Shown: positions 41,426-57,291, counted from the first letter of the stretch. The stretch: 64,000 bases of DNA from an uncultured Blautia sp. (GCA_900547615.1 URHH01000001.1:2296-66295), one strand, 5' to 3'. Numbers and translations are program-made. The notes: a model not told the origin generated them from the letters alone.

Positions 41426-41489
41426 TTGTTTTCTCCTTTTCATTTTTTCATGCGGACGCATCCTTCCAAAGCTCTTCCTTTACTGCCGA

Positions 41490-41529: not shown

Positions 41530-41735
41530 TAAAATACACGTATAGTATCGGATTTTACTCAAACAGGTTGCCTTTACCGGAAGCTTCCTATCGTTCCTGT
41601 CAAGCAGGTTTCCTGACTTACGGATTATTGCTCCAGCGCCTTCTCACAGAATTTCTTCCGCAATGGCTTTGCTTTCACTCCCCGTTTACAGTGGCCGGAC
41701 CGTTCAGGCTTTTCACCTGATTCCCTTTTACCTCT
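41530..41735 (-). promoter_or_regulatory. cobalamin (B12) riboswitch #2
   Basis: Minus strand reads AAAAGGGAATCAGGTGAAAAGCCTGAACGGTCCGGCCACTGTAAACGG ... AGTCAGGAAACCTGC. It has a consensus B12 box (GCCACTG) and is paralogous to riboswitch #1. Confidence 0.8.
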
Positions 41736-41780
41736 TTTCGAGCACTTAACAAGTAAACTTAATTCATTTATACTTTTCCT

Positions 41781-41822: not shown

Positions 41823-42503
41823 CTACTCCAGCCCCAGTTTCTCCACAAACATTAAACAAAAACTGATAATCAGGCATCCACAAGATACCCAGATAACCGG
41901 AATTCCATATTTCAGAGAAAGAACGCCTCCAATTCCCGCTCCTACAGCAAAGAAAAAGATAATTCCAAAGTAGTAGCAGGCACTCTTTAAAAGTTCCGGA
42001 TTCTTTTCCCGGAAATAAGCAGAGAGCGCTGCTGTACCGCTTCTCATATTTCCAATGCACATGGTGCTGGCATACGCATATCCGTGAACCTTGCGGAATG
42101 TCTGAACCTGCATAGCACAGGCAAAGGATACAAGGAAAGTTGCCACAATATTTAAATTCGAAGGAAGGAAGCCCACAATAAAGAGAATTATAATTTCATG
42201 GAAAAGAACATCCTGCCTCCAGTGAAGCATTCTTCCTTCCCTGCTTCTTCCCCGAATCTGCTCTGCCGCCATGACTCCAAAGATAAAAGCAATCAACGGA
42301 AACAGATAATGAAGAGCAGCAATCCACTCTCCGGACATGATATGCTGGCTCATAAGAACTACATTTCCTGTCTGAGCATTGGAAAACACCTCATCCCTCG
42401 TATTATAGGTATAAGCATCCTGCAATCCGCCGGAAAAAGCAAGAAACATATTGTTAATAAACGCCTCCGACATCTGAATGTTCGAAGAGTGGATTTTTTT
42501 CAT
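41823..42503 (-). CDS. DUF1275/YoaK-family integral membrane protein
   Basis: 226 aa, 6 TM helices. Last gene of the hdr-flx-frd-fum operon (1-nt gap to fumB). Confidence 0.65.
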   Translation of the reverse strand: MKKIHSSNIQMSEAFINNMFLAFSGGLQDAYTYNTRDEVFSNAQTGNVVLMSQHIMSGEWIAALHYLFPLIAFIFGVMAAEQIRGRSREGRMLHWRQDVLFHEIIILFIVGFLPSNLNIVATFLVSFACAMQVQTFRKVHGYAYASTMCIGNMRSGTAALSAYFREKNPELLKSACYYFGIIFFFAVGAGIGGVLSLKYGIPVIWVSCGCLIISFCLMFVEKLGLE

Positions 42504-42504
42504 T

Positions 42505-43074
42505 TTACTGTCTCTCCATTTCCTTTTTTCTTAAATATTCTGCTCTGCCGTCTTCATAAAGATTATTTCCTTCGCTGTCAATAATCACTACGAGCGGCAT
42601 ATCTTCCACGTATAATTTACGCAGTGCTTCTGCGCCCAGATCTTCATATGCGATCAGCTCTGCTTTTTTAATACATTTTGCAAGAAGGGCTCCGGCTCCG
42701 CCAATTGCCCCGAAATATACACCGCTGTATTTTTTCATAGCGTCCACAACCTCAGGAAGGCGCGCACCTTTTCCGATCATACCCCTTGCGCCTACAGACA
42801 TCATAGTAGGAGCGTACGCGTCCATACGGCCGCTTGTTGTAGGACCTGCTGAACCGATTACCTGTCCCGGTTTTGCAGGGGTAGGTCCTACATAATATAT
42901 GGTTGCATCTGCCGGATCAAAAGGAAGTTTTTCCCCTTTTTCAAGAGCCTCACACATTCTCTTATGCCCGGCATCTCTTGATGTGTAAATGGTTCCTGTT
43001 AACAGTACCCGGTCTCCTGCGTGAAGAGATTTTGCAAGCTCCTCTGTGAGAGGCAATGTAATACGTCTTTCCAT
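42505..43074 (-). CDS. fumB: class I (Fe-S) fumarate hydratase/L(+)-tartrate dehydratase beta subunit
   Basis: 189 aa. Matches the Fe-S hydro-lyase tartrate/fumarate beta subunit (GGAGALLAK...). Abuts the alpha subunit. Confidence 0.85.
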   Translation of the reverse strand: MERRITLPLTEELAKSLHAGDRVLLTGTIYTSRDAGHKRMCEALEKGEKLPFDPADATIYYVGPTPAKPGQVIGSAGPTTSGRMDAYAPTMMSVGARGMIGKGARLPEVVDAMKKYSGVYFGAIGGAGALLAKCIKKAELIAYEDLGAEALRKLYVEDMPLVVIIDSEGNNLYEDGRAEYLRKKEMERQ

Positions 43075-43917
43075 TTAAATCACCTCCGTTTTATGGCGAG
43101 TCACATGACAGTTAATGTTAATCGCACATGGCATTCCTGCAATATGAGTTGGAAGCGTCTCAATATTTAAACCAATTGCCGTCGTCTTTCCGCCAAAGCC
43201 CTGCGGTCCGATTCCAAGTTCATTGATTTTTTCCAGCATCTCTTTTTCCAGCTCTGCATAAAACGGATCCGGATTTTCAGAGTCAATCGGACGCATAAGT
43301 GCCTTTTTCGCAAGGAGCGCCGCTTTATCGAATGTTCCGCCGATTCCCACGCCCACTACCATAGGAGGACAAGGATTCGGACCTGCTGTCTCCACTGTCT
43401 CAAGAATAAAATCCTTAATTCCCTGAAGTCCTGCAGATGGCTTAAACATACGGATCGCACTCATATTTTCACTTCCAAAGCCTTTTGGTCCCAATGTAAC
43501 CTTCACCTGATCTCCCGGTACAATTTCCGTATAAAGCATAGCCGGTGTATTATCTCCTGTATTCCCTCTTCTTACCGGATCTTTTACAACAGATTTTCGA
43601 AGATAACCTTTATCATAACCACGGCGTACACCTTCATTCACTGCCTCAGTGAGATCGCCTCCTACAAAATGCACATCCTGACCGATTTCAAGAAATACAC
43701 ATGCCATTCCTGTGTCCTGACAGATCGGAACATTTTCCCTGTCCGCAATCTCAAAATTTTCAATAATATTGTCCAGGATTCCCTGTGCAATCTCTCCATC
43801 TTCACAGGCACGACAATTTTTAATAGCGCACTTTACATCCTCCGGCAAATGATTATTTGCCTCAATACAGAGCTTTTCAATTACTTCTGTAAGTCTGCTC
43901 ACTTCTATTTCACGCAT
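43075..43917 (-). CDS. fumA: class I (Fe-S) fumarate hydratase/tartrate dehydratase alpha subunit
   Basis: 280 aa. Fe-S hydro-lyase alpha subunit with conserved Cys ligands (C...C...C). Confidence 0.85.
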
Positions 43918-43932
43918 TAGCTTTCACACTCC

Positions 43933-45534
43933 TTATCTCTCGTGACGGGCGTATTTTGGAAGAAGAAGCGGAGAAATATCCTCTGATTCCACACCTGCTT
44001 CTTTTAATTCCTCTGCGTATTTTTCAATGTGAGAAAGGGTCATCGTTCCAAGCTCTACTTCTTTCGCTTTTGCTGCTGCCGCCTTTCCTGCATTTCTTCC
44101 GAACACAATGATATCCAAAAGAGAATTTCCCATCAGACGGTTTCTTCCATGAATTCCTCCTACTGCTTCTCCTGCAACAAGAAGGTTGGAAATTGCTTTT
44201 GTAAATCCGTCTCCTCCGATTTCCAGTCCTCCGTTCTGATAATGAAGCGTTGGATATACAAGAATCGGCACTTTTCTCATATCAATATCGTAGTTCATAT
44301 ACATACGGAGCATTGCAGGAATTCTCTTTTCGATGGTTCCCTCTCCTCCGATTTTTTCAATCATTGGAGTATCCAGCCATACGCCGCTTCCAAGAGGTGT
44401 TGTTACTCCTTTATGACGATCTGTACATTCACGGATAATAGATGCAGCTGCAACATCGCGTGTCTCCAGCGGATGCATAAATGCCTCACCTTCTGCATTT
44501 ACAAGCATCGCTCCAAGAGAACGCACCTTCTCTGTTACAAGAGCTCCGTAAATCTGTGCCGGATATGCAACTCCTGTCGGATGATACTGAATGGTGTCCT
44601 GATAAAGAAGAGGCGCACCTGCACGATATCCGAGAATCAGTCCGTCTGCCGTTGCCCCGTAATGGTTGGATGTAGGGAAGTTCTGATAATGAAGGCGTCC
44701 TGCTCCTCCGGTTGCAATGATGACTGTTTTTGCTTTTGCCACCATGTAATCCTCTGTCTCCATATTTAAGAGAACAGCGCCTGCCACCTGACCTTTTTCG
44801 TCTTTAATCAGCTCTACGGCAGAAGTAAATTCCACAACCGGAATTCCTCTGTTGATTACTTCATCACGAAGAGTACGCATGATTTCCGCTCCGGAATAAT
44901 CTTTGCAGGCATGCATTCTCTTTCTGGATGTTCCGCCGCCATGGGTTGTCACCATATTTCCTTCTTCGTCTTTATCAAACATGACGCCAAGCTTATTTAA
45001 CCACTGGATCGCATCCGGTGCTTCCATAACAAGACGTTTTAAAAGCTCCGGTCTTGCAGCAAAATGACCGCCTCCAAATGCATCAAGATAATGCTGTACA
45101 GGAGAATCGTTTTCCTTATCAGCAGCCTGAATTCCGCCTTCTGCCATCATAGTATTGGCATCTCCAATACGCAGTTTTGTCACAATCATAACATTCGCAC
45201 CGGCTTCATGGGCCTCGATGGCTGCAGAAGCACCTGCACCGCCGCCGCCGATTACCAGCACGTCTGTCTCATAATCTACTTTACTCAAATCTACCTTATC
45301 TGTCAACAGGCGGCTGTTGGAATGAAGAAGATGTCCAAGCTCTGCCGGAACCTTCTGCCCTTTATTTGGTCCGATTTTAATTTCTACAAATCCGTCTTCT
45401 CTGTAATCCGGATGAAATTCTTTCAGAAGGACATCTTTTTCCTCTGCTGTCATTCGTCTCGGCTCCATGCCCATACGCGCATCTCTTGTTGCTTCCACCT
45501 TTTTTACAGATTCAAGCATTTCTGGTGTAAACAT
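43933..45534 (-). CDS. fumarate reductase/succinate dehydrogenase-family FAD flavoprotein (soluble FrdA-like) with ~90-aa N-terminal extension
   Basis: 533 aa. Rossmann VLVIGGGGAGASAAIEA. Dicarboxylate-binding HPTGVAY...PTLHYQNGGL (H-x-x-x-GG) and GRNRLMGNSLLD (R-x-LGGNSL) are typical of FrdA/SdhA/NadB. Confidence 0.8.
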   Translation of the reverse strand: MFTPEMLESVKKVEATRDARMGMEPRRMTAEEKDVLLKEFHPDYREDGFVEIKIGPNKGQKVPAELGHLLHSNSRLLTDKVDLSKVDYETDVLVIGGGGAGASAAIEAHEAGANVMIVTKLRIGDANTMMAEGGIQAADKENDSPVQHYLDAFGGGHFAARPELLKRLVMEAPDAIQWLNKLGVMFDKDEEGNMVTTHGGGTSRKRMHACKDYSGAEIMRTLRDEVINRGIPVVEFTSAVELIKDEKGQVAGAVLLNMETEDYMVAKAKTVIIATGGAGRLHYQNFPTSNHYGATADGLILGYRAGAPLLYQDTIQYHPTGVAYPAQIYGALVTEKVRSLGAMLVNAEGEAFMHPLETRDVAAASIIRECTDRHKGVTTPLGSGVWLDTPMIEKIGGEGTIEKRIPAMLRMYMNYDIDMRKVPILVYPTLHYQNGGLEIGGDGFTKAISNLLVAGEAVGGIHGRNRLMGNSLLDIIVFGRNAGKAAAAKAKEVELGTMTLSHIEKYAEELKEAGVESEDISPLLLPKYARHER

Positions 45535-45548
45535 ATAGGTTGTCCTCC

Positions 45549-46217
45549 TTATTTCTCAATTTCCCTTGTATTGTAAAGTTCCTGCATCTCTGTAATCGGC
45601 TTCTGCATAATCTGCTCAATGAGCTCATCATATTCGCCGTGGTGAATTTCCTCCACTCTCTTATTGAGGTGCTCTGCTTCCGGTGCAATATATTTTCCTG
45701 TGAGACGTCTCGCGAGAACGCCCACCATCGGATGAGAAATGCCGGCCGGACATCTTACGGAACAGCAGCCGCAGCCTACACAGTCAAAGGATTCCTCCGC
45801 ACATTTTTCCAGCTCTCCCCTCTGTGCATAAGCAATGTACTGCATAACATTTAAGTCCTGAGTACATGCTTTTGTACAGGCATTACAGCCGATACAGCTG
45901 TAAATTTCCGGATAGAGCTCCATCATAACCTGCTGTGTCGGTTTGATTTCTTCTATATCATAAGTTCTTTTATCTGTCGGGAAAAACGGAATACTTGCAA
46001 CATACATTCCCTCTTCCACCTGTGTCTGACAGGCAAGGCAGGTTTTCAGCTCATTTTTTCCCTTGATTCTGTAAATTGTAGCACAGGCTCCGCAGAAACC
46101 GTGGCGGCAGCCTCTCTTTAATGTGTAGCCTGCATATTCCATAGCTGTCATGATGGTAAGGTCTGCCGGTACGCTGTATTTCTTACCGAAAAAATATACG
46201 TTTACCATTTTATCCAT
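45549..46217 (-). CDS. succinate dehydrogenase/fumarate reductase iron-sulfur subunit-like protein (2Fe-2S + two cubane clusters)
   Basis: Start chosen at MDKMVNVYFFG. CRHGFCGACA matches the 2Fe-2S motif of SdhB/FrdB. CIGCNACTKAC and CVGCGCCSVRCP are the [4Fe-4S]/[3Fe-4S] motifs. Confidence 0.7.
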   Translation of the reverse strand: MDKMVNVYFFGKKYSVPADLTIMTAMEYAGYTLKRGCRHGFCGACATIYRIKGKNELKTCLACQTQVEEGMYVASIPFFPTDKRTYDIEEIKPTQQVMMELYPEIYSCIGCNACTKACTQDLNVMQYIAYAQRGELEKCAEESFDCVGCGCCSVRCPAGISHPMVGVLARRLTGKYIAPEAEHLNKRVEEIHHGEYDELIEQIMQKPITEMQELYNTREIEK

Positions 46218-46239
46218 TTTCAAATACCTGTCCTTTCTA

Positions 46240-47094
46240 TCAGTACTCCTGGGGCAATTCTTCAATTTCATCAAAGCGGAAAACAGGACCGTCTTTACAT
46301 ACGTATTTCGATCCGATGTTGCATCGTCCGCATTTTCCTACTCCACATTTCATGCGAAGTTCAAGAGTTGTATACACCTGCTCATCGGTAAAGCCCATTT
46401 CCTTTAATCCCGCAAGAACAAACTTAATCATGATCGGCGGTCCGCAGACAAGAGCAACTTTATCTGTATCAAAACCGATTTCCTTTAAATATGTCGGAAC
46501 AAATCCAACGTGACCATCCCAGCCTTCCTGTTCCCGGTCTATGGTAAGGTATACATTTACTCCTTCTGTTTTCATCCACACTTCCTGAATTTCCTTTAAC
46601 TGAACCAGATCGTCTGCAGAACGGGAGCCGTAAAGAATATCAACTGTACCATAATTCTCACGGTTATCAAGAACATAATTAATCACAGAACGAAGCGGCG
46701 CAAGACCGATTCCTCCTGCAATAAACAGAAGATTTTTCCCTTTTAATTCTGTCTCCACAGGAAAAGAATTTCCATATGGTCCTCTTACTGTAATTTCATC
46801 TCCAACAGAAAGGCTGTGAAGATAATCTGTAAGAACACCGCATTTTTTTATGCTGAATTCCTGATATTCTTTATTGGTGGGAGAAGATGTAATCGAAAAC
46901 ATTCCCTCACTGATACCCGGTGCACAGAGCATGGCGCACTGTCCCGGCATATGTTCGAAAAGCTTTCCGCCTTCCGGAGCATTGACCCGGAATGTTTTTA
47001 CATCCGGTGTCTCCTCACGAATATCTGTAATAACTCCAACCTTTGGAATCAATGTGTCTAATGTATAATTTTTATGACAGGTGCATTCACTCAT
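46240..47094 (-). CDS. FlxA-like NAD(P)H-binding FAD flavoprotein with C-terminal 2Fe-2S (sulfhydrogenase gamma / DHOD electron-transfer subunit family)
   Basis: 284 aa. FAD/NAD-binding FNR-like fold (GGIGLAPL) and C-terminal CGVGKCGRC cluster. Confidence 0.65.
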   Translation of the reverse strand: MSECTCHKNYTLDTLIPKVGVITDIREETPDVKTFRVNAPEGGKLFEHMPGQCAMLCAPGISEGMFSITSSPTNKEYQEFSIKKCGVLTDYLHSLSVGDEITVRGPYGNSFPVETELKGKNLLFIAGGIGLAPLRSVINYVLDNRENYGTVDILYGSRSADDLVQLKEIQEVWMKTEGVNVYLTIDREQEGWDGHVGFVPTYLKEIGFDTDKVALVCGPPIMIKFVLAGLKEMGFTDEQVYTTLELRMKCGVGKCGRCNIGSKYVCKDGPVFRFDEIEELPQEY

Positions 47095-48134
47095 TCCCTG
47101 TTACCTCCCTGTTTCTGAAAGGACTTGATCACTTTTACAATATTTAACGCGGACGGACATTTTTCCACGCATCGTCCACAGCCTACGCAGGAATACATTC
47201 CATCGTTGTTTGCCGGGAAATATACAAGCTTGTGCATAAATCTCTGGCGAAATCTCTGCATCTGGCTTGTACGGTTATTTCCGTGTGCCATCATGGTAAA
47301 ATCCGAATACATACAGGAATCCCAGCAGCGGTATCTCTGTACCCCATGACCTGTATCATAATCCTTAATGTCGTAGCACTGGCATGTAGGACATACAAAA
47401 GTACAGGTTCCACATGCAAGACACGGTTTATAAAGCTCCTCCCAGAGAGGAGAATCAAATTTTTCTTTTAAAGCGTCTCCATTCCAGCCATCAAGAGAAA
47501 GATCAGAATACGGAAGCTTATCCACAACAGCTCTTATGGAAGCCTTCTCTTTTTCCACACATTCCGCATCTTCTCCGCCTACTTCCTCCAGAAGGCTCTT
47601 CACTGCCTCTGTAAGCGCCTCTCCCTTGTCTGTATTTGGTTGCCAGAAAAGCGTATCTCCTGTCTGCCAGACAGAAACGTCTCCTGCCGGCTCTGCCGCA
47701 TCAATCCCGAACGCCTTACAAAAACATGTCTCCTCCGGCTCAGAACAGGCAAATGCAACGATTGTTCCATGCTCTCTTCTTGCCGCATAAAAACTGTCTA
47801 CCGGATCTGCAAGAAAGACTTTATCAAGAACTTCCACGCCTCTTACGTCACAGGCCTTCATTCCGAAAACAACAAAATCCTGCTCTTTTAACGCTTCCGG
47901 TTCTACCTTTATTTTCTTTCCGTCACGGACACAGGTATAAAGGTTCTCACTCTGTGGAAAAAAAGCATCTTTAGGCGATTTTACTGTTTTTAATGTGTCA
48001 AGATCGATCTCTGCCTCTTCACTCCACGCCGCAAAATTCGTCTGTCCGTTTGTATTTACCGGAAGATACAGCTCCCTTGCCTCTGCAATGAGAGCAAACA
48101 GCCCGGAAAGCTTTTCTTTTGCTATCTTATACAT
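47091..48134 (-). CDS. FlxB-like iron-sulfur protein (sulfhydrogenase beta / AsrA-like, 4Fe-4S dicluster)
   Basis: 347 aa. CLACGTCTFVCPTCQC and CVGCGRCVEKCP ferredoxin motifs. Confidence 0.6.
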   Translation of the reverse strand: MYKIAKEKLSGLFALIAEARELYLPVNTNGQTNFAAWSEEAEIDLDTLKTVKSPKDAFFPQSENLYTCVRDGKKIKVEPEALKEQDFVVFGMKACDVRGVEVLDKVFLADPVDSFYAARREHGTIVAFACSEPEETCFCKAFGIDAAEPAGDVSVWQTGDTLFWQPNTDKGEALTEAVKSLLEEVGGEDAECVEKEKASIRAVVDKLPYSDLSLDGWNGDALKEKFDSPLWEELYKPCLACGTCTFVCPTCQCYDIKDYDTGHGVQRYRCWDSCMYSDFTMMAHGNNRTSQMQRFRQRFMHKLVYFPANNDGMYSCVGCGRCVEKCPSALNIVKVIKSFQKQGGNRE

Positions 48135-48149
48135 ACCTTATCCCCTTTC

Positions 48150-49112
48150 TCACACACTGCCCGGCTCTGCATCATCAAAAGTAAAACTTGTAAGCGGACC
48201 TTTTGACTCAGCATCCTCTCCTGCCTGATACTCTCCGTAAAGCATATCAATATCTTTGATAAACTTTCTGTTAAACAGATGAAGGGGAATCCCCTGCGGA
48301 CATACTCTGCTGCACTCGCCGCAGTCGGTACATCTTCCTGCCACATGGAAGGCACGGATAATATGGAACATTTTTTCCTCAAAAGAATCCGCATTCGCCT
48401 TCTGGCTGCTGTCAAATTTATTGCTGTCAAACACGCATTTTCTGCAGGAACATGCAGGACATACATTACGACAGGCATTGCATCGGATACATTTGCTTAA
48501 TTCCTTCTGGAAAAATGCAAATTTTTCTTCCGGGCTCATTGCCTCGATTCTCTCTACTTCAGCAAAACGGTCTGCATCCTTTGTATCTTTCGATTCGCCA
48601 AGGAGCTCATCATAAATCTGATGCTCTTTTCCTTTGCACACATGGCATCTCTCCAGCATTGCATCTTTATAGGAGCATGTTTTTTCTCCGTAAATGGTCT
48701 GAATTTTCAATGTATCACAGGCATCTTCCGCCTCAGCGCCCTGAATACTTTCAATTCCCTTAATTCCCATTTTTTTGATTTTCTCTATATCAAGCTTTCC
48801 TTTGCAGCCGATTCCGATAATATACGCTTTCTCCCTGTCTACACGATGTTCTTTTATAAGCTGATTGAAGCTGTATGTATCACATGGCTTTAAGAACACG
48901 AGAGTTTTCCCCTCCATTTTGGAGGCTGCAATCATATATTTACTTAAATTCGCACCACAAAATCCATTATATACAAGATTGTCCAGATCTTCCGCCTTAT
49001 CAAAAAACGCCGGCTCCGGATTGTAGGAGAGATCTCCTGCCTTCCATCCAAGAACCTGTGTTACCTCTCCGGAAGAAAGCAGTTCTTTTGCACGTTCAAT
49101 CATTTCCCGCAT
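48150..49112 (-). CDS. FlxC-like iron-sulfur protein (4Fe-4S dicluster domain)
   Basis: 320 aa. CIRCNACRNVCPACSC and CTDCGECSRVCP motifs. Confidence 0.6.
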   Translation of the reverse strand: MREMIERAKELLSSGEVTQVLGWKAGDLSYNPEPAFFDKAEDLDNLVYNGFCGANLSKYMIAASKMEGKTLVFLKPCDTYSFNQLIKEHRVDREKAYIIGIGCKGKLDIEKIKKMGIKGIESIQGAEAEDACDTLKIQTIYGEKTCSYKDAMLERCHVCKGKEHQIYDELLGESKDTKDADRFAEVERIEAMSPEEKFAFFQKELSKCIRCNACRNVCPACSCRKCVFDSNKFDSSQKANADSFEEKMFHIIRAFHVAGRCTDCGECSRVCPQGIPLHLFNRKFIKDIDMLYGEYQAGEDAESKGPLTSFTFDDAEPGSV

Positions 49113-49543
49113 CGCAAATCCTCCAGTCTCACATTTTTACCAAGAGAATAAATCTTTTCCACAAACTCATTCATAGTTGTAGAGAATTTTACACCTTCTG
49201 CAGCAGATACCCACTCCACGCGCGTACGGCCGTGCTCCACGCCAATATAATCCAGCATGGAAAAGAGAAGCGTCATTCTTCTTCTGGCATAATAATTTCC
49301 GGTGCTGTAATGACAGTCTCCCGGATGACATCCGCACATGATCACTCCATCTGCGCCTTTTTCAAAGGCTCTTAAAATGAACATTGGATTTACGCGGCAG
49401 GAGCATGGAACACGGATAATTTTTACATCTGCCGGATAGGTAAGACGGCTGCTTCCTGCAAGGTCTGCACCTGCATAGCTGCACCAGTTACAGCAGAATG
49501 CCACGATTTTCGGTCTGAATTCTTCTTTTGCTTCTATCGACAT
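49100..49543 (-). CDS. MvhD/FlxD-like protein (methyl-viologen-reducing hydrogenase delta subunit family)
   Basis: Start chosen at MSIEAKEEF... IVAFCCNWCSYAGADLAG...IIRVPCSCRVNP...GADGVIMCGCHPGDCHY is the MvhD signature. Confidence 0.7.
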   Translation of the reverse strand: MSIEAKEEFRPKIVAFCCNWCSYAGADLAGSSRLTYPADVKIIRVPCSCRVNPMFILRAFEKGADGVIMCGCHPGDCHYSTGNYYARRRMTLLFSMLDYIGVEHGRTRVEWVSAAEGVKFSTTMNEFVEKIYSLGKNVRLEDLRCGK

Positions 49544-51522
49544 ATTGCATCTACCTCCGCTAAAATCTGTCTGTTGGAGAATCCCTGAAGGTCCATTGCA
49601 CCGGAAGGACAGGTAACAGTGCAGGCACCGCAGCCCTGACACAAAGCGTCATTTACAACGGCAATTCGGCGCACCTCGCGGATTCCGTGGTCGTTTACTT
49701 CTTTTTCTTCATAAGTGATCGCTCCATAAGGACATACGTTCGCGCATGTGGAGCATCCGTTGCAGAGAAGCTCATCGGATTTTGCAGTACATGGATTTGT
49801 CATAAGCTTGTCTTTTGCAAGAAGTCCAATCGCTTTTACTGCCGCAGCTCCCGCCTGAGCAACTGTCTCCGGAATATCCTTTGGTCCCTGGCATACACCG
49901 GAAAGGAAAATACCTGCGGTAGGAGATTCTACCGGGCGAAGCTTTGCGTGTGCTTCTGTAAGGAAATTATTTGTATCAATACTTGCAGTCAGCATAGTTG
50001 CAATCCGGCGTACATCCGGTTCCGGCTCAATTGCAGCCGCAAGAACAACCATATCTGCCTCTTTTAAAATCTGTTTATTATCAAGAAGGTCCACACCCTG
50101 TACAAGAAGTTTTCCATCCGGCTGTGGAATTACCTTTCCAACCTGGCCTTTTACGTAGTTTACGCCGTACTGCTCTACTGCTCTCCTGTAAAACTCGTCA
50201 AAGTTTTTACCAGGTGTACGAACATCAATATAAAATACGGTTACATTTACATCCGGATATTTGTCACGGATCAGCATGGCGTGTTTTGCTGTATACATAC
50301 AACAGATTTTAGAGCAGTAGCTCTTTCCTCTGTCATCTGCACAGCGGCTTCCCACACATTGGATAAACACCATTTCCTTCGGCGCTTTTCCGTCTGAAAG
50401 GCGCTCAAGATGTCCTTTTGTAGGTCCTGCTGCATTCATAATACGCTCAAGCTCCAGAGAAGTAATAACGTCCTTGCTCTGACTGTATGCGTACTCGTCA
50501 TATTTATCCAGCTTAATCATATCAAAACCGGTTGCCACTACAATAGCACCGTATTTCTGTGTCACGATCTTGTCCTGCTGGTCATATTCAATTGCTCCTG
50601 CCTGACAGACTTTTGCACAGAGACCACATTTTCCTGTTTTAAACTTAATACAGTTTTCTCTGTCAATGACCGGCACATTTGGAATCGCCTGGGCAAACGG
50701 TGTGTAAATGGCGGTTCTGTTTCCAAGTCCTCTGTTAAACTCACTTGGAATTTTTTTGGAAGGACATTTTTCCTGACAGATGCCGCAGCCTGTACACTTA
50801 TCCATATTTACGCTTCTTGCTTTTTTACGGATGTCTACTGTGAAATCACCTACAAATCCAGTTACTTTTTCTACTTCACTATATGTATAGATATTGATTT
50901 TTTCGTGGGCTGCCGCCTCCACCATCTTCGGTGTCAGAATACAGGCAGAACAGTCAAGTGTAGGGAATGTCTTATCAAGCTGTGACATTCTTCCGCCGAT
51001 ACTTGGAGTTTTCTCCACAATGTCTACTTCATATCCTGCATCTGCAATATCAAGAGCAGTCTGGATTCCGGCAATACCGCCGCCAATTACAAGCGCTCTC
51101 TTTGTTACACGACTCTCGCCCGGTTTTAAAGGAGCATTTAAGTTTACTTTTGCAATGGCTGCTCTTGCAAGAATAACTGCTTTTTTTGTTGCCTCTTCCA
51201 TATCCTTGTGAATCCAGGAGCAGTGCTCGCGGATATTTGCGATTTCCACCATATATGGATTCAGTCCGGCTCTCTCTGCAGCCTTTCTGAAGGTTGCCTC
51301 ATGCATACGCGGGGAACAGGAGCATACTACGATTCCTGTAAGATTTTTTTCTTTGATCGCCTCTGCAATTTTCGCCTGTCCTGCTTCGGAGCACATATAT
51401 GGATAATCTTCCGCATGGACAACACCCGGCTCAAGAAGAGCCATCTCTGCTACTTTTTTAACGTCTACCGTTGCAGCAATATTGCTTCCGCAATGACAGA
51501 CAAATACGCCGATTCTCTGCAT
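49534..51522 (-). CDS. hdrA: heterodisulfide reductase subunit A-like FAD/Fe-S protein
   Basis: 662 aa. Cys-rich N-terminal domain, FAD Rossmann ALVIGGGIAGIQTALDIADAGYEVDIVEK, an inserted ferredoxin domain and C-terminal ferredoxin domains (CNGCSTCANVCP, CQGCGACTVTCP). Confidence 0.85.
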   Translation of the reverse strand: MQRIGVFVCHCGSNIAATVDVKKVAEMALLEPGVVHAEDYPYMCSEAGQAKIAEAIKEKNLTGIVVCSCSPRMHEATFRKAAERAGLNPYMVEIANIREHCSWIHKDMEEATKKAVILARAAIAKVNLNAPLKPGESRVTKRALVIGGGIAGIQTALDIADAGYEVDIVEKTPSIGGRMSQLDKTFPTLDCSACILTPKMVEAAAHEKINIYTYSEVEKVTGFVGDFTVDIRKKARSVNMDKCTGCGICQEKCPSKKIPSEFNRGLGNRTAIYTPFAQAIPNVPVIDRENCIKFKTGKCGLCAKVCQAGAIEYDQQDKIVTQKYGAIVVATGFDMIKLDKYDEYAYSQSKDVITSLELERIMNAAGPTKGHLERLSDGKAPKEMVFIQCVGSRCADDRGKSYCSKICCMYTAKHAMLIRDKYPDVNVTVFYIDVRTPGKNFDEFYRRAVEQYGVNYVKGQVGKVIPQPDGKLLVQGVDLLDNKQILKEADMVVLAAAIEPEPDVRRIATMLTASIDTNNFLTEAHAKLRPVESPTAGIFLSGVCQGPKDIPETVAQAGAAAVKAIGLLAKDKLMTNPCTAKSDELLCNGCSTCANVCPYGAITYEEKEVNDHGIREVRRIAVVNDALCQGCGACTVTCPSGAMDLQGFSNRQILAEVDAICR

Positions 51523-51527
51523 CAGCT

Positions 51528-51905
51528 TTACCTCCTGTATCTTCTGAATGCACTGACTAAAAGCTGCTGTGGAAGTTCCGGATCAAGAAGCTCCGGGATT
51601 TCATTTGGAGATAAATAATCCTGTCCCTTCTGACGGATCACCATCTGCCTTGCTGCATCAATTAATTTTCCCGGTTTCACATCCCTCGGACATCTCTCCA
51701 CACAGGCAAAACAGGAAAGGCATTTCCACAGAGATTTTGAATTTACAAGTGCCTCTATATCTTCATTTACCACATAAGAAACAAACTGATGCGGTTTAAT
51801 ATCCATCTCATTAAAGGAAGGACAGGAAGCGGAGCATTTTCCGCATTTCATACACTTCAGTGGATTTACACCGCTGATTTCTTTTATCATTTCTGCCTGA
51901 CTCAT
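51528..51905 (-). CDS. hdrC: heterodisulfide reductase subunit C-like (2x 4Fe-4S ferredoxin)
   Basis: 125 aa. CMKCGKCSASCP and CLSCFACVERCP. Confidence 0.75.
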   Translation of the reverse strand: MSQAEMIKEISGVNPLKCMKCGKCSASCPSFNEMDIKPHQFVSYVVNEDIEALVNSKSLWKCLSCFACVERCPRDVKPGKLIDAARQMVIRQKGQDYLSPNEIPELLDPELPQQLLVSAFRRYRR

Positions 51906-52690
51906 ACTCTGTCCTCCTTCACCCCAAGCGCTTCTGCAAGAAGCTCTGTGAAATAATATACAGGGAGACCGTTTTCTGTTTTATTTAAGTTATAAAGGCA
52001 AAGCGGACAGGCTGTAATCAGCATTTCTGCACCAAAGCCTTCTGCGCTTTCTGTAATTTTCTTGCACATATTCCCTGACATTTCTTTTTCTTTTAAGGAA
52101 ATATATCCTCCGCAGCATTCATTTCTATATGGATAAATCACAGGCTCTCCTCCGATCGCACGGATAAATTCTTCTATGACAGAAGGATTTTCCGGATCAT
52201 CAAAAGCCATAATTTTTCCCGGTCTTAAAAGAAGGCATCCATAATACGCTCCGATTTTTCTTCCCGTAAAAGGATTCACCACTTTTTCTTTTATCTTATC
52301 AAATCCCACACGGTCACGAAGCACTTCCAGATAGTGAAGAACCGTTGTCTCTCCCTTATATGGTTCAGAGAGCTGCATATAATTATTTGCTCTCGTCTGA
52401 ATGTCTTCTACATTTTTCATATCGTCATTGACGCGCTTGATCACATGATGACAGGCAGAACAGAGTGTCACAAGATCCTGTCCTTTTTCCTTTGCATCAT
52501 TCAGGGCGCGGACGGAGGAAAGCTTTGTGGCAATCTCATCTGTTCCAAGAGGATATACTCCTCCGCAGCACTGCCAGTTTTCAATTTCTTCCAGTTCGAA
52601 GCCCAGAGCTTTTGCAGAAGCTCTTGCGTAATCGTCAAGAGCCTTTGCCTTTGTACGGAGTGTACACCCCGGATAATAACTGTACTTCAT
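51902..52690 (-). CDS. hdrB: heterodisulfide reductase subunit B-like protein with two CCG domains
   Basis: 262 aa. C-x31-39-CCG-x35-36-C-x2-C spacing appears twice (YPGCT...QCCGG...CSACHH; YYGC...ECCGG...CPLC). Confidence 0.85.
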   Translation of the reverse strand: MKYSYYPGCTLRTKAKALDDYARASAKALGFELEEIENWQCCGGVYPLGTDEIATKLSSVRALNDAKEKGQDLVTLCSACHHVIKRVNDDMKNVEDIQTRANNYMQLSEPYKGETTVLHYLEVLRDRVGFDKIKEKVVNPFTGRKIGAYYGCLLLRPGKIMAFDDPENPSVIEEFIRAIGGEPVIYPYRNECCGGYISLKEKEMSGNMCKKITESAEGFGAEMLITACPLCLYNLNKTENGLPVYYFTELLAEALGVKEDRV

Positions 52691-52717
52691 AGTTTCTGTT
52701 ATCCTTTCTGTAAAGCC

Positions 52718-53671
52718 TTATACGGTAAGGTCAAGCTGAGAGATCACTGCTTTCAGAGCATCTGCGCTCGCCTTCAGTTTCCCGATTTCTTCCTGATTCA
52801 TACGCATTGGAATTTTACCCTGCACACCATTTGGTCCTACAAGAGTCAGCGTACTTAAAGCCACGTCTTCAATTCCATACTCTCCGTGCATCATCGTGGA
52901 TACAGTTGTGATGGAATCGGAAGCAGAGAGAAGAATGCCGCAGAGCTTGCATACTGCTGTGGAAACTGCATAGAAGGTAGCGCCTTTATTTGCAATGATC
53001 TTACCACCGGATTTCTGAACGTATTCCAGCATTCCCTCTTTATCAAGCTCTTCCACTTCTTTTCCGAGATCCTCCATTGTATGATAAAACTCATCTACAC
53101 TTACACCTGAAATATAAGCGCCTGTCCACGGGATGAAGGAAGTATCTCCATGCTCTCCAAATACATAGGCATGAATGTTTTTCTGTGCCACCTTAAAGTG
53201 TTCAGAAAGCCCGCAGCGCAGTCTTGCAGAATCCAGGATCGTACCGGAACCGATAATCTGGTTTTCCGGAAGACCTGAGATTTTTGTAAATACATAAGTC
53301 ATAATATCTACCGGATTGCTTACCATAATGTAAAGCGCATCTGGAGCTGCTTTTACGATTTCCGGAGTAATACTTTTTAAGATATTTACATTTGTCTGGG
53401 TCAGCTCAATTCTTGACTGTCCCGGTTTCCGCGCAATACCGGAAGTGATAATTACAATGTCGGAATCCTTTGCATCTTCGTATTCTCCTGCCTTGATGGA
53501 AATAGGATTACGGAAGCAGGTTCCCTGAGCAATGTCCATTACTTCGCCTTCTACTTTTTCTTTATTAATATCAATCAGAACGATTTCTGATGCAATGTCT
53601 TCACTTGATAAAGTATACGCGATGGTTGCTCCTACACTTCCTGCTCCGATGATTGTAATTTTGCTGCTCAT
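52718..53671 (-). CDS. L-lactate/malate dehydrogenase family enzyme; Arg at the substrate-specificity position suggests an LDH-like malate dehydrogenase
   Basis: 317 aa. NAD motif KITIIGAGSVGAT. Substrate loop GIARKPGQSRIEL carries Arg where L-LDHs have Gln (GxxQKPGETR). It is the first gene of the operon. Confidence 0.8.
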   Translation of the reverse strand: MSSKITIIGAGSVGATIAYTLSSEDIASEIVLIDINKEKVEGEVMDIAQGTCFRNPISIKAGEYEDAKDSDIVIITSGIARKPGQSRIELTQTNVNILKSITPEIVKAAPDALYIMVSNPVDIMTYVFTKISGLPENQIIGSGTILDSARLRCGLSEHFKVAQKNIHAYVFGEHGDTSFIPWTGAYISGVSVDEFYHTMEDLGKEVEELDKEGMLEYVQKSGGKIIANKGATFYAVSTAVCKLCGILLSASDSITTVSTMMHGEYGIEDVALSTLTLVGPNGVQGKIPMRMNQEEIGKLKASADALKAVISQLDLTV

Positions 53672-53863
53672 AACATTCTCCTCTCACTTTGTCTTTTTTT
53701 TAACAATTTCAGGTAAAAAAAATGGGGAACTGCCACTATTTTTTCTCTTTTCTCAGCATTTCAAATATAAAATAGTTATTTTTTTACGATTTATAGTTAA
53801 GTTCCTCTTTTAATAATATACCACACAAAAGTACAAAGGACAATATCTTTTTATTTTTTTGTT

Positions 53864-53941: not shown

Positions 53942-55291
53942 TTACACAAGTCTTCTTACAGAAAGAATCGTTCTGTATGTCGCATCATTGCTGATCTTGA
54001 TTCCATCTCTTGAGTTGGAAGCGTGGACAATCTGTCCATTTCCCATGTAAATTGCCACATGACCGCCGTAGCAGATCAGGTCTCCAGGCTGTGCCTCAGA
54101 GTATGGTACTTCATATCCTGCATTCTGCTGCTCATAAGAAGTTCTCGGAATACTTACGCCAAAGTTCGCATATACGCTCTGTGTAAATCCGGAGCAGTCT
54201 GCTCCGTTTGTGAGGCTTGTTCCGCCCCATACATACGGATTACCTACGAACTGTGTTGCATAATCTACAACGGAAGAACCTGAGCCTGAGTAAGACGGAG
54301 TGTCCTGACTCTCATACTCTTCCTGAGATACTGTGTTGTCAGAATCAATCACATTTCCATACTCGTCATATTCTACATCTTCAGAGCTTTCACTCTCTTC
54401 TGTGTATTCTTCCTCAGTGCTCTCTGTATCTTCGATTACATTTCCATCTTCGTCGTACTGAACTTCTTCGTTTTCTGCCTCTTCCTGGGCTGCCTGCTCT
54501 GCCGCCAGTCTTGCAGCCTCTTCTTCTGCTGCTCTTCTTGCAGCTTCTTCTGCTGCGATTCTCTCTGCTTCCAGTCTCTCAATCTCAGCCTGCTGTTCTG
54601 CAATCAGGTTTGCATATTCTGTTGCCTGCTGCTGTGCATATGCAATCTCAGCATCGCAGTTTGCAGAACTTGCTCTTCTTGCATCAATCTCATTCTGAAG
54701 AACAACGGACTGCTCTTCATAGGAAGCTTTCATCTCTTCCAGTTCAGCCTGCTCACTCTCGTATTTTGTCTGAAGTTTTTTTACTTCCTCGATAGTATTT
54801 ACGTATTTTTCAAGACTCTTTCTGTCCTGATCATACATTTTCTGTGTGTACTCTGCTCTTGTGAGAAGGTCTGCCAGATTCTCTGCGTTCATCATCATCT
54901 GGAACCAGGCATCGTCTCCGCCTTTTTCATAAAGGTACTGGATACGTTTCTTCATAGCTTCATACTGTTTATCGCGTGCCTTCTGTGCTTTTCCCAGATC
55001 CTGTTTTGTACGGACAATATCTACTTCTTTTGCAGAAATATCGTTTTTCAGCACATCAATGGAAACCATCACGTCTACAAGGTTTGCATCGAGAGTGGCG
55101 ATTTCACTTTCCAACTGCTGTTTTGCCGCCCAAAGCTCGTCCATACGTGCATATGTAGCGTCTAACTGCTGGCTTGTCCATGCCTGCTCTTCTCTTAATT
55201 CTTCTTCTCTTGATGCGCTTACGCTTACGACCTGAGTTCCACACATTAAAAGCGCCATTGCAAGGCACATAAGTCTTTTCTTCATAATCAT
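53942..55291 (-). CDS. secreted NlpC/P60-family peptidoglycan hydrolase with a long N-terminal coiled-coil and an acidic linker (CwlO/PcsB-like architecture)
   Basis: 449 aa. Signal peptide, ~250 aa heptad-rich region, an E/A-rich low-complexity stretch, and C-terminal NlpC/P60 with DCSGF...H...H. Confidence 0.8.
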   Translation of the reverse strand: MIMKKRLMCLAMALLMCGTQVVSVSASREEELREEQAWTSQQLDATYARMDELWAAKQQLESEIATLDANLVDVMVSIDVLKNDISAKEVDIVRTKQDLGKAQKARDKQYEAMKKRIQYLYEKGGDDAWFQMMMNAENLADLLTRAEYTQKMYDQDRKSLEKYVNTIEEVKKLQTKYESEQAELEEMKASYEEQSVVLQNEIDARRASSANCDAEIAYAQQQATEYANLIAEQQAEIERLEAERIAAEEAARRAAEEEAARLAAEQAAQEEAENEEVQYDEDGNVIEDTESTEEEYTEESESSEDVEYDEYGNVIDSDNTVSQEEYESQDTPSYSGSGSSVVDYATQFVGNPYVWGGTSLTNGADCSGFTQSVYANFGVSIPRTSYEQQNAGYEVPYSEAQPGDLICYGGHVAIYMGNGQIVHASNSRDGIKISNDATYRTILSVRRLV

Positions 55292-57170: not shown

Positions 57171-57291
57171 CCTTTTATATCGGGTGCTATTTTTTACAAT
57201 TTTGTTACAAACCTGTAACTCATTATATACGATAAATAACTTCCCGTCAACAGAGTTTTGATATTTTCAGCGTTTTGCCGATAAAAAGCCC

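Follow-up and report, generated by a model that had tools for sequence, protein, structure and literature searches.

The window analysed here, a stretch of 64,000 nucleotides from an uncultured Blautia sp., carries 13 genes on its minus strand (41823-53671) that are packed about 0-27 nt apart or overlap. From first to last they encode a malate dehydrogenase (MDH), HdrB, HdrC, HdrA, FlxD, FlxC, FlxB, FlxA, an FrdB-like Fe-S subunit, an FrdA-like flavoprotein, the fumarase subunits FumA and FumB, and a DUF1275 membrane protein; all features described below lie on the same strand. Computed with start codons that have ribosome-binding sites, the successive junctions are +27, -4, +5, -10, -13, +15, -4, +22, +14, +15, 0 and +1 nt, including the 4-nt overlap of hdrC with hdrB and the fumA-fumB junction (gap 0 nt). 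Two starts were corrected: FlxD begins at ATG 49543, which is preceded by a GGAGG ribosome-binding site, and not at GTG 49642, and the FrdB-like protein begins at ATG 46217, not at TTG 46274. The resulting range of -13 to +27 nt bears out an earlier, sequence-only reading of this DNA, which had described gaps of 0-28 nt or overlaps, and Pfam and NCBIfam searches agreed with all the gene identities and the minus-strand placement that it had given. This spacing suggests that the genes are co-transcribed in this organism, and terminator-like and promoter-like matches inside the operon showed no excess over shuffled sequence.

The seven Hdr and Flx proteins have, subunit for subunit, the domain content of FlxABCD-HdrABC (Pfam, NCBIfam). 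The HdrB-like subunit (51902-52690) has two complete CCG motifs (CCG x2 in Pfam), and it matches HdrB in the PDB (8rvv, E = 1.6e-32) and both SdhE (135 bits) and HdrB (130 bits) in NCBIfam. Its ten CCG-motif Cys are all invariant (57/57 loci), and the two motifs are predicted sites for two non-cubane [4Fe-4S] clusters. The HdrC-like subunit (125 aa; 51528-51905) has two [4Fe-4S] motifs (Fer4_8 and Fer4_17; CoB_CoM_SS_C at 66 bits in NCBIfam) with eight invariant Cys, the HdrB and HdrC Cys having been followed through 57-58 loci. HdrA (662 aa; 49534-51522) matches HdrA2 in NCBIfam at 794.6 bits over residues 3-660 (profile positions 1-640). Its Pfam domains (Pyr_redox_2, NAD_binding_8 and several Fer4 families) indicate an FAD-binding, thioredoxin-reductase-like core with multiple [4Fe-4S] ferredoxin domains, the flavin being presumed to be the bifurcating one. 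FlxD (147 aa; 49100-49543) is an MvhD-type [2Fe-2S] protein (FlpD, 181.8 bits) whose Cys are conserved in 69 loci. FlxC (320 aa; 48150-49112) is an Fe-S protein with a C-terminal 4Fe-4S dicluster domain and is distantly paralogous to FlxB, with 20.6% identity over 296 aa. FlxB (347 aa; 47091-48134; Fer4_22, 106 bits) resembles AsrA/HydB and is related in NCBIfam to AsrA (147 bits) and to the sulfhydrogenase beta subunit (ShyB, 204 bits). FlxA (284 aa; 46240-47094) has FAD, NAD(P)H and [2Fe-2S] domains (FAD_binding_6, NAD_binding_1 and DHODB_Fe-S_bind), is related to AsrB and HydG (NCBIfam) and is the predicted entry point for NADH.

The first gene (52718-53671) encodes a 317-aa NAD-dependent dehydrogenase of the LDH-like type (Ldh_1_N and Ldh_1_C in Pfam) that scores as L-LDH in NCBIfam. 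However, it has Arg81 ('GIARKPGQSR') at the position of LDH Gln102, where PDB 1y6j also has Arg but B. subtilis LDH (3pqd) does not. This specificity-position Arg is invariant in 45/45 orthologues and is a malate dehydrogenase signature, in keeping with the earlier assignment of the gene as an MDH. Toward the other end lie the class I fumarate hydratase alpha subunit FumA (280 aa; 43075-43917; Fumerase, 397.5 bits) and beta subunit FumB (189 aa; 42505-43074; Fumerase_C, 201 bits). The last gene (41823-42503) encodes the DUF1275 membrane protein (226 aa; 197 bits).

The fumarate reductase subunits and their conserved neighbourhood

The FrdB-like subunit (222 aa; 45549-46217; Fer2 and the 4Fe-4S dicluster domain Fer4_7) has an SdhB-type [2Fe-2S] motif and two full CxxCxxCxxxC motifs, and it matches SdhB in the PDB (E = 2e-6). 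Its cluster Cys are invariant in 77 loci; taken together, the checked Cys of HdrB, HdrC, FlxD and FrdB show no variation over 57-77 species. With its four Cys, the third cluster motif points to a [4Fe-4S] and not a [3Fe-4S] cluster. Pfam and NCBIfam found no CCG domain in FrdB; these domains belong to HdrB, a separate protein. FrdB and FrdA act as a physical pair, being naturally fused in P0123.

The FrdA-like flavoprotein (533 aa; 43933-45534; FAD_binding_2, 235 bits) has an 88-aa N-terminal extension and no Pfam match to Succ_DH_flav_C (PF02910). Its N127 aligns with H45 of E. coli SdhA (1nek), the residue that binds FAD covalently, and is Asn in 80/80 orthologues. The FAD of FrdA is therefore predicted to be non-covalent; Asn at this position is also found in soluble one-way fumarate reductases (e.g., 1d4d). 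In the same alignment, H318, T334, E335, R359, H431 and R466 correspond to SdhA H242, T254, E255, R286, H354 and R399, and these fumarate-binding and proton-transfer residues are invariant in 80 loci. The best NCBIfam match is TfrA (NF004900; 339 bits, below the cut-off of 718, over model positions 6-427 of 546). The sequence-only reading had proposed placing the flavoprotein in a FrdA/SdhA/NadB/Tfr tree; there it falls within the Sdh/Frd/Tfr radiation, and NadB, including that of E. coli, is split off at 100% bootstrap. The grouping with L-aspartate oxidases that the reading had named as a refutation was thus not seen. These features support its prediction as the catalytic subunit of a fumarate reductase.

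The conservation of the locus was analyzed in a comparative set of 80 species genomes, in which 56 loci had enough flank and 43 had full flank. The gene-order survey that the sequence-only reading had suggested showed hdrB-hdrC-hdrA-flxD-flxC-flxB-flxA-frdB-frdA in identical order at 56/56 loci with enough flank, and the arrangement is far beyond chance because it recurs at all of these informative loci of other species. Within loci sharing this nine-gene core, Hdr-Flx thus appears to be an obligate partner of frdBA. A fumarase gene was present in 41 of the 43 full-flank loci, either class I FumAB downstream or class II FumC upstream; the two are non-homologous, and different lineages have taken up one or the other into the operon. 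An MDH gene was present in 36 of the 43. Most full-flank loci also carry a permease of the AAE family (Asp-Al_Ex) of the SucE type at the end where the window has DUF1275; the succinate exporter SucE belongs to that family. The DUF1275 gene is adjacent in few related loci only and is accessory rather than conserved. The system itself is real, coherent and widespread, and is common in gut bacteria. Given the associated fumarases and MDH and the invariant core, comparative genomics strongly supports fumarate, the substrate named in the sequence-only reading, as the predicted substrate.

Could the flavoprotein instead be like L-aspartate oxidase, or reduce another unsaturated acid (urocanate, acrylate, itaconate, etc.)? 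NCBIfam L-aspartate oxidase models score at about 250 bits, compared to 339 for TfrA and 277 for Sdh, all below cut-off; many gut-bacterial FAD_binding_2 reductases use other substrates, and the NCBI label for the protein is just 'FAD-dependent oxidoreductase'. We nevertheless consider such a role very improbable, given the separation of bona fide NadB from the family in the tree, the invariance of all the SdhA/FrdA dicarboxylate-binding and proton-transfer residues, the Fe-S partner subunit, and the recruitment of MDH and of two unrelated fumarase types across lineages. Two specific assignments were rejected: NadB, based on the flavoprotein's score (250.5 bits against a TIGR00551 cut-off of 452.75), its position in the tree and its Fe-S partner, which NadB lacks, and true TfrA, based on a clade separate from that of P0219 (765 bits) and the absence of the C-terminal domain.

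Comparison with described systems

The idea of an Hdr-Flx-linked fumarate reductase is not new, as both the operon and the hypothesis are already in print for the 'succinate operon' of Pseudoclostridium thermosuccinogenes (Koendjbiharie et al. 2020, PMC7282089, citing preprint 10.20944/preprints201912.0288.v1). There, an NADH-dependent, ferredoxin-reducing fumarate reductase was hypothesized, the operon was highly expressed and co-regulated about 4-fold, and no succinate was formed once H2 was added, which is what coupling to ferredoxin reduction would predict (PMC7282089). Our comparison is of gene order and sizes (CDQ83_RS03320-60 and fumC, PMC7282089 supplement), not of sequences. The P. 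thermosuccinogenes genes lie on one strand and run from fumarase through seven Flx-Hdr genes to two fumarate-reductase genes, and the window has this type of layout, with seven hdr/flx genes, frdB-frdA directly after them and a fumarase in the unit. The sizes are 783, 324, 5347 (five genes), 675 and 1602 nt in P. thermosuccinogenes and 789, 378, 5283, 669 and 1602 nt in the window. The two differ at their ends: P. thermosuccinogenes has class II fumC upstream, no reported MDH gene and an 83-aa hypothetical protein last, whereas in the window MDH lies upstream and class I fumAB and DUF1275 lie downstream.

A linkage of tfrAB with flxABCD-hdrABC has been proposed for tubeworm symbionts (PMC6315080, PMC11636981). 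In the rTCA clusters of these symbionts and Thioflavicoccus (tfrAB/korABCD/flxABCD-hdrABC), a Tfr-like soluble fumarate reductase is interleaved with Hdr-Flx and a direct hand-off of electrons has been proposed. Those clusters, which also encode 2-oxoglutarate:ferredoxin oxidoreductase, are used by Gammaproteobacteria to fix CO2 autotrophically, whereas the window, with MDH and fumarase, would serve fermentative succinate formation in gut Clostridia. A relative 56% identical to the window FrdA is found in a cluster like the symbiont type (POR-HdrA-MvhD-HdrC-HdrB-FrdB-FrdA), adjoining a four-subunit 2-oxoacid:ferredoxin oxidoreductase. The sequence-only reading, which knew of no characterized Hdr-Flx-coupled fumarate reductase in bacteria, was right in that we found no biochemical characterization of any member of this family in the searchable literature, but in view of these publications its novelty was overstated. 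As a whole that reading is partly supported, and the observation itself is confirmed.

The Hdr-Flx half is comparable to FlxABCD-HdrABC of Desulfovibrio vulgaris (Ramos et al. 2015), which, as presented in the papers citing it (PMC7282089, PMC6315080), has the same seven subunit types and cofactor motifs, with NADH as the proposed donor and ferredoxin as the proposed low-potential acceptor. The window order hdrBCA-flxDCBA mirrors flxABCD-hdrABC. The high-potential acceptor proposed in those accounts of D. vulgaris is the DsrC disulfide, whereas the window has no DsrC nearby and the family has a two-subunit fumarate reductase invariably attached.

The fumarate reductase half resembles, in being cytoplasmic and without an anchor, the methanogen thiol:fumarate reductase TfrAB (Heim et al. 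1998, as cited in PMC6315080), which together with Mvh-Hdr performs the same net chemistry. The analogy drawn in the sequence-only reading holds in detail: the window FrdB aligns with the N-terminal part of TfrB (NCBIfam model positions 19-183), and HdrB with the CCG part at the C-terminus (positions 415-486). As FrdB and HdrB jointly cover the model, TfrB is a natural precedent for CCG clusters feeding an SdhB-like chain. The CCG domains, the thiol-oxidizing site, are fused in TfrB and absent from FrdB, and most Tfr-like sequences have His where FrdA has Asn. E. coli FrdABCD and SdhCDAB are homologous to the window enzyme in the active site of the flavoprotein and likewise have an SdhB-type [2Fe-2S] domain. 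In contrast to complex II, the window enzyme has no covalent-FAD His, no Succ_DH_flav_C and no membrane anchor (the operon has no anchor-subunit gene, DUF1275 being its sole membrane protein), and its donor would not be quinol.

Proposed electron route and alternatives

Based on gene content, we consider it reasonably probable that the operon supplies all enzymes of the reductive branch leading from oxaloacetate to succinate, with the last step performed by a cytoplasmic, quinone-independent assembly that bifurcates to ferredoxin. MDH would convert oxaloacetate to malate, which FumAB would dehydrate to fumarate. FlxA (FAD, [2Fe-2S]) would oxidize NADH, and the electrons would travel along the clusters of FlxB and FlxC and the [2Fe-2S] cluster of FlxD until they reach the HdrA FAD, where the pair would be split. 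One electron would go uphill via the HdrA ferredoxin domains to ferredoxin; the other would go downhill via HdrC, both non-cubane HdrB clusters and the three FrdB clusters to FrdA, whose non-covalent FAD would reduce fumarate. The net reaction would be 2 NADH + Fd(ox) + fumarate -> 2 NAD+ + Fd(red) + succinate, for which textbook potentials (-320 mV, about -450 mV and +30 mV) give roughly -40 kJ/mol. We infer that Hdr-Flx and FrdBA form one complex in which fumarate is the high-potential acceptor, and that the wiring to an NADH-driven Hdr-Flx probably gains energy by electron bifurcation. If so, reduced ferredoxin could drive Rnf or a hydrogenase, and energy would be conserved from fumarate reduction without quinones.

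Relatives of FrdBA bear on whether bifurcation is needed. A 47%-identical relative occurs in an FrdB-FrdA-NuoF-like arrangement, without HdrA. Because different NADH-oxidizing modules adjoin this and the 56%-identical relative, FrdBA is likely a portable acceptor module fed via Fe-S clusters, and the pairing with a simple NuoF-like NADH dehydrogenase subunit indicates that NADH can reach fumarate via FrdBA with no bifurcation, a reaction that is strongly exergonic by itself. Hdr-Flx might then be only an electron wire that reduces no ferredoxin. We regard this as unlikely, as seven conserved genes would be a costly wire, the checked cofactor-site Cys of HdrB, HdrC and FlxD are invariant and ferredoxin-type cluster domains are kept in HdrA. 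To our knowledge, all characterized HdrA complexes of such architecture (Mvh-Hdr, Fdh-Hdr) bifurcate. The suppression of succinate formation by H2 in P. thermosuccinogenes also argues against a plain wire (PMC7282089).

More distant FrdBA relatives exist without any Hdr or Flx genes, so FrdBA can evidently use other donors, possibly ferredoxin itself. This bears on a further alternative, in which Hdr-Flx bifurcates onto a disulfide at HdrB (of a DsrC-like protein or a small thiol), and FrdBA is a separate enzyme fed by ferredoxin or a thiol pool that shares only the transcript. The two CCG motifs of HdrB, which form the disulfide-reducing site in methanogens, are intact and invariant; Tfr and Hdr are linked through the CoM/CoB thiols in methanogens; and the symbiont literature allows a route via reduced ferredoxin and a DsrC-like protein (PMC11636981). 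However, FrdB, having no CCG domain, lacks the recognizable thiol-oxidizing site of TfrB, and neither the window nor any of the 43 full-flank loci has a DsrC-like or thiol-carrier gene in or beside the operon. CoM/CoB thiols are not expected in Clostridia. To bifurcate to ferredoxin and then dump its electrons on fumarate would be futile, and the invariant nine-gene order, with frdBA always right after flxA, argues for one assembly. Separate enzymes thus seem improbable to us; in the single bifurcating complex that we favor, HdrB would hand electrons directly to FrdB, like its CCG counterpart inside TfrB, and the coupling is probably direct rather than via a diffusible heterodisulfide as in methanogens.

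Predicted regulatory signals at the operon ends

The next unit downstream starts with a cobalamin riboswitch (41586-41764, 100.5 bits), which gives the operon a clean boundary at that end. Upstream, a predicted sigma-70-like promoter (53815-53843; TTGTCC, 17-nt spacer, extended TG and TATATT, a consensus match only) is sited in a 270-nt gap after an NlpC/P60 gene. A weak hairpin and T-run after the NlpC/P60 gene precede it.

A Rex-box-like half-palindrome, TTGTTAAAAAAAAGACAA (53689-53706), is located 17 nt upstream of the MDH start codon. It is a weak match, agreeing at 11/14 positions with TTGTTAANNNNTTAACAA, which we take as the consensus of Clostridial Rex sites; 8% of shuffles reach this score, which alone is not significant. 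Among related loci, 26 of 52 upstream regions have a match of at least 12/14 (three of them perfect), compared to 1% of shuffles, and the presence of such sites in half of these loci fits an NADH-consuming role for the predicted enzyme.

Gene content and layout of the operon

Assignment of the window's genes with Pfam and NCBIfam showed that thirteen consecutive minus-strand ORFs fill positions 41823-53671. First in transcription order is an LDH/MDH-family dehydrogenase (52718-53671), followed by HdrB with two CCG domains (51902-52690), HdrC with two [4Fe-4S] motifs (51528-51905) and HdrA, which matches the HdrA2 model with 794 bits over residues 3-660 (49534-51522). Next are the MvhD/FlpD protein FlxD (49100-49543), the Fe-S proteins FlxC (48150-49112) and FlxB (47091-48134), the latter related to AsrA/HydB, and FlxA, a FAD/NAD(P)H/[2Fe-2S] protein (46240-47094). 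These precede FrdB (45549-46217; Fer2 plus dicluster), the FAD_binding_2 flavoprotein FrdA (43933-45534), the alpha (43075-43917) and beta (42505-43074) subunits of a class I fumarase, and a DUF1275 membrane protein (41823-42503). Gene starts were placed at start codons with ribosome-binding sites, by which two were corrected (FlxD to 49543 and FrdB to 46217), and with these starts neighboring genes overlap by up to 13 nt or lie up to 27 nt apart. The gene calls of the sequence-only reading hold up in these domain assignments, and the tightly packed minus-strand operon that it described is borne out by the assignments and the junction lengths. A promoter-like site (53843-53815) lies in the sole sizeable gap upstream of the operon, and a cobalamin riboswitch (41586-41764) opens the next unit on its 3' side. 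A division of the operon by internal promoters or terminators was rejected, as such matches were no commoner than in shuffled sequence.

The dehydrogenase exceeds the NCBIfam cut-off for L-LDH (329.8 versus 303.55 bits). At the position of LDH Gln102 it has an Arg ('GIARKPGQSR'), as does the closest PDB entry, 1y6j; the same region in the Bacillus subtilis LDH 3pqd reads 'ANQKPGETR'. The Gln102Arg switch is known to give oxaloacetate-specific, LDH-like MDHs. Based on this switch, the Arg marks the enzyme as an oxaloacetate-specific LDH-like MDH despite its L-LDH score. The Arg was invariant in the 45 MDH orthologues (45/45) found among the best 80 of at least 598 candidate loci in other genomes.

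The flanks of the window (cell-wall hydrolase, choline-binding proteins, B12 uptake, GH2 galactosidase and DAP dehydrogenase) are unrelated to the operon. Directly upstream are a peptidoglycan hydrolase of the NlpC/P60 type, which has a PcsB-type coiled coil, and two large proteins with choline-binding repeats (53942-55291, 55542-57170 and 57340-58932, all minus strand), and this cell-wall cluster (53942-58932) is likewise unrelated. Two full-length cobalamin riboswitches were observed on the minus strand, at 41586-41764 (100.5 bits) and 38305-38498 (96.5 bits). The first, to which a strong terminator at 41525-41500 belongs, precedes a Peripla_BP_2/FecCD/ABC-ATPase uptake operon (40421-41461, 39339-40412 and 38563-39342); the second follows closely on the 3' side of that operon, and the next gene is presumably under its control. 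A 1525-aa GH2 beta-galactosidase (32856-37433, minus strand) with Laminin_G_3 and a C-terminal NPCBM domain is of a type characteristic of host-glycan or mucin foragers, which fits a gut origin of the window.

FrdA, FrdB and HdrB

Alignment of FrdA to Escherichia coli SdhA (PDB 1nek) revealed that the SdhA residues H242, T254, E255, R286, H354 and R399 are retained as H318, T334, E335, R359, H431 and R466. SdhA His45, the site of covalent FAD attachment, is replaced by Asn127, and the same Asn is present in the soluble Shewanella fumarate reductase 1d4d. These active-site residues and the Asn were invariant both in a nine-member alignment with identities down to 39% and in the 80 orthologues from the best 80 of at least 598 loci. 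FrdA has a family-specific N-terminal extension of 88 residues, and a Succ_DH_flav_C domain is absent from it. Its best NCBIfam match is TfrA, at 339 bits far under the cut-off of 718, and public annotation of the flavoprotein is merely 'FAD-dependent oxidoreductase'.

An exhaustive search returned 7747 relatives of the flavoprotein at E ≤ 1e-10. Representatives were labeled with NCBIfam, E. coli FrdA, SdhA and NadB were added from the annotated K-12 genome, and a neighbor-joining tree was built from 398 columns with 100 bootstraps. The NadB sequences split from all others with 100% bootstrap support. The sequence-only reading had named a grouping with L-aspartate oxidases as an outcome that would count against a fumarate reductase; no such grouping was seen, and the L-aspartate oxidase assignment is rejected by the tree and the NCBIfam cut-offs. 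FrdA of the window formed one clade with 100% support together with the relatives that have the N-terminal extension and a set of ~400-residue relatives; this clade is distinct from true TfrA (P0219), the Mycobacterium-type Sdh (P0228) and E. coli SdhA and FrdA. No sister relationship is claimed for this clade because the deeper branching among Tfr-like groups was poorly supported. Membership of TfrAB or complex II was also rejected, as the CCG fusion, covalent His, C-terminal domain and membrane anchor are missing. One 411-aa relative without the N-terminal extension (P0179) has an ATP-grasp gene on one side and a Lyase_1 (fumarase/aspartase family) gene on the other, in a polysaccharide-type cluster (L096, 4749-8704).

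FrdB has an SdhB-type CxxxxCxxC...C [2Fe-2S] motif and two complete CxxCxxCxxxC motifs, aligns weakly to SdhB in the PDB, and contains no CCG domain by Pfam or NCBIfam. Both CCG motifs are complete in HdrB, and among solved structures it comes closest to methanogen HdrB proteins (E = 1.6e-32). FrdB matches positions 19-183 of the TfrB model and HdrB aligns to its C-terminal end, positions 415-486; therefore, FrdB and HdrB together look like a TfrB divided between two polypeptides. In HdrB, HdrC, FlxD and FrdB the cysteines of the clusters were invariant among the best 80 of at least 598 loci, so that selection acts on the cofactor sites of these four proteins. An arrangement in which electrons would pass by way of a thiol or the two modules would act separately has the intact CCG motifs in its favor. 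However, FrdB is without a thiol-oxidizing domain, a carrier gene is absent nearby both in the window and in the 43 full-flank loci, and the energetics of that arrangement would be futile.

Conservation and substrate of the operon

When one genome per species was scanned, at least 598 loci emerged as candidates, and the thirteen window proteins were mapped onto the best 80 of these. Their flavoproteins are 71-92% identical to FrdA of the window, and their hosts are Lachnospiraceae, Oscillospiraceae, Acutalibacteraceae, Christensenella and other gut Clostridia. The exact order hdrB-hdrC-hdrA-flxD-flxC-flxB-flxA-frdB-frdA was observed in all 56 of the loci with at least 7.7 kb upstream (among the best 80 of at least 598). 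The nine-gene core is invariant in at least 56 species; within this core, the gene order that the sequence-only reading had singled out for a survey of co-occurrence is the same in every informative locus.

Among those of the best 80 of at least 598 loci that had full flanks, MDH was upstream in 36 of 43 and a fumarase was present in 41 of 43. The fumarase differs in type and place: class I FumAB lies downstream of the core in the closer group of loci, and class II FumC (Lyase_1 plus FumaraseC_C) lies between MDH and hdrB in a more distant group that includes Christensenella tenuis. That one and the same operon has taken up two fumarases without homology to each other strongly supports fumarate as the substrate of its reductase. 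A substrate other than fumarate is unlikely, since both the active site and the associated genes speak for fumarate. Most of the loci also have an Asp-Al_Ex permease of the AAE family, to which the succinate exporter SucE belongs; neither this permease nor FumC is present in the window. DUF1275 adjoined the core in only a handful of the 43 full-flank loci (best 80 of at least 598) and, being this rare, is an accessory gene. Its reading as an integral part or conserved succinate exporter was rejected, as the permease is common instead.

Upstream of the first operon gene, palindromes resembling the Rex box, whose consensus we take to be TTGTTAANNNNTTAACAA, reached at least 12 of 14 matches in 26 of 52 related loci, compared to 1% of shuffles. 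Perfect or near-perfect palindromes (e.g., TTGTTAAAAAATTAACAA) are located 30-270 nt 5' of that gene in L046, L061, L080 and other loci, with the match perfect in these three. The window's own site (53706-53689) is degenerate, with 11 of 14 matches, and insignificant alone. These candidate sites fit an NADH-consuming, redox-balancing role.

Proposed electron transfer and relation to known systems

In the best-supported model, electrons from NADH would be split at HdrA between ferredoxin and fumarate. NADH would be oxidized at FlxA and its electrons passed through FlxB, FlxC and FlxD to the HdrA flavin, from which the low-potential electron would go to ferredoxin and the high-potential electron through HdrC, HdrB and FrdB to the FAD of FrdA and on to fumarate. 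Complex formation, direct transfer from HdrB to FrdB and ferredoxin coupling are the parts of this model that we infer. The potentials of NADH, ferredoxin and the fumarate/succinate couple are -320, ~-450 and ~+30 mV. With textbook potentials the reaction of 2 NADH, oxidized ferredoxin and fumarate was calculated at about -40 kJ/mol, a value similar to those of other bifurcating systems. The direction is reductive, since reversal would be endergonic and non-covalent FAD disfavors succinate oxidation.

Relatives of FrdBA (the FrdB-FrdA pair) in other settings bear on this model. A natural 727-aa FrdB-FrdA fusion (P0123; L081, 5250-7433), joined via the N-terminal extension of the flavoprotein and without hdr or flx genes on its 7.7-kb contig, indicates that FrdB and FrdA are a physical unit. 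In L085 (811-9771) a ferredoxin and a four-subunit 2-oxoacid:ferredoxin oxidoreductase are followed by HdrA, MvhD, HdrC, HdrB, FrdB and FrdA, with HdrB directly adjoining FrdB, the flavoprotein 56% identical, and no flxABC in the 10-kb contig. This cluster would tie the ferredoxin-consuming and fumarate-reducing steps of the reductive TCA cycle to a single Hdr module. A 47%-identical relative in proteobacterial contigs (L082-L084, 9366-12891) belongs to a three-gene unit of FrdB, FrdA and a NuoF-like protein (Complex1_51K, SLBB and NADH_4Fe-4S), with overlapping stop and start codons and no Hdr. From its domains this unit looks like a three-subunit soluble NADH:fumarate reductase, of which we know of no description. 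Other distant relatives are FrdB-FrdA pairs standing alone, and P0130, P0135, P0141, P0158 and P0162 were located on short contigs or among uninformative neighbors.

Based on these varied contexts, FrdBA appears to be a transferable terminal reductase that receives electrons via Fe-S clusters from whichever NADH-oxidizing module is its partner. The pairing with different modules favors direct electron transfer rather than a thiol shuttle, and shows that bifurcation is not intrinsic to FrdBA. It is possible that the operon encodes a plain NADH:fumarate reductase with Hdr-Flx as a mere wire, as the NuoF-type variant allows such transfer, but the conservation of seven genes and the intactness of HdrA are difficult to reconcile with this.

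The operon, from an uncultured Lachnospiraceae-like gut bacterium, is a real, coherent system of an already described, hypothesized kind, and the sequence-only reading is borne out in its reasoning too. In the 'succinate operon' of Pseudoclostridium thermosuccinogenes, a gene for fumarate hydratase is joined by seven for an NADH dehydrogenase/heterodisulfide reductase complex, two for a fumarate reductase and one for a small hypothetical protein; its genes are all highly expressed and shift ~4-fold together (PMC7282089). The spans in the supplement of that study are 1365 (fumC), 783, 324, 5347 (five genes), 675 and 1602 nt (PMC7282089). The frdA gene of the window likewise has 1602 nt, and the layout in P. 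thermosuccinogenes is the FumC-type architecture of Christensenella and other loci. In the reductive TCA clusters of tubeworm symbionts, tfrAB is interleaved with flxABCD-hdrABC and korABCD, and a direct electron hand-off has been proposed (PMC6315080, PMC11636981). The sequence-only reading was aware of no characterized Hdr-Flx-coupled fumarate reductase; literature searches gave no biochemical or structural characterization and only the two hypothesis-level lines above. The idea itself was already published. Our analysis adds how widely and how strictly the operon is conserved in gut Clostridia, and that one type of fumarase has been displaced by another that is unrelated to it. It further adds the view of FrdB plus HdrB as a split TfrB and the finding that FrdBA, as a module, also pairs with other NADH modules. 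With the invariant core, the two fumarases and the modular FrdBA, the argument is more pointed and more general than the published single-organism proposal.

Succinate is a key cross-feeding and host-signaling metabolite of the gut, usually credited to the membrane-bound, quinone-dependent fumarate reductases of Bacteroidota and Negativicutes. We hypothesize, giving it slightly less than an even chance, that the operon represents a further class of flavin-based electron-bifurcating enzyme, in which the non-cubane clusters of HdrB reduce no disulfide and pass electrons straight to an SdhB-like subunit (a TfrB split in two and plugged into Hdr-Flx), and that this is the main quinone-independent, energy-conserving succinate route in a large fraction of gut Clostridia (Lachnospiraceae, Oscillospiraceae and Christensenellaceae), under NADH-sensing Rex control. 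If so, many quinone-poor Clostridia would gain a cytoplasmic succinate route that also yields reduced ferredoxin, for extra ATP via Rnf or for H2, and the question of what Flx-Hdr reduces in bacteria without DsrC, dating from 2015, would be answered. The survey indicates that the system is widespread and relevant to gut succinate, and points to tractable test organisms. Carriers that can be cultivated include P. thermosuccinogenes, for which CRISPRi is available (PMC9044749), Christensenella tenuis, Fusicatenibacter faecihominis and Sporofaciens musculi.

Within L001-L080 (the 80 inspected loci), flavoproteins were 86-88% identical between MAGs labeled Lachnospiraceae, Oscillospiraceae, Acutalibacteraceae and Lawsonibacter, and copies 74-75% identical were observed in MAGs labeled Bacteroidaceae and Treponema. 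Such identities across labels suggest either lateral transfer of the whole operon or errors of binning or labeling.
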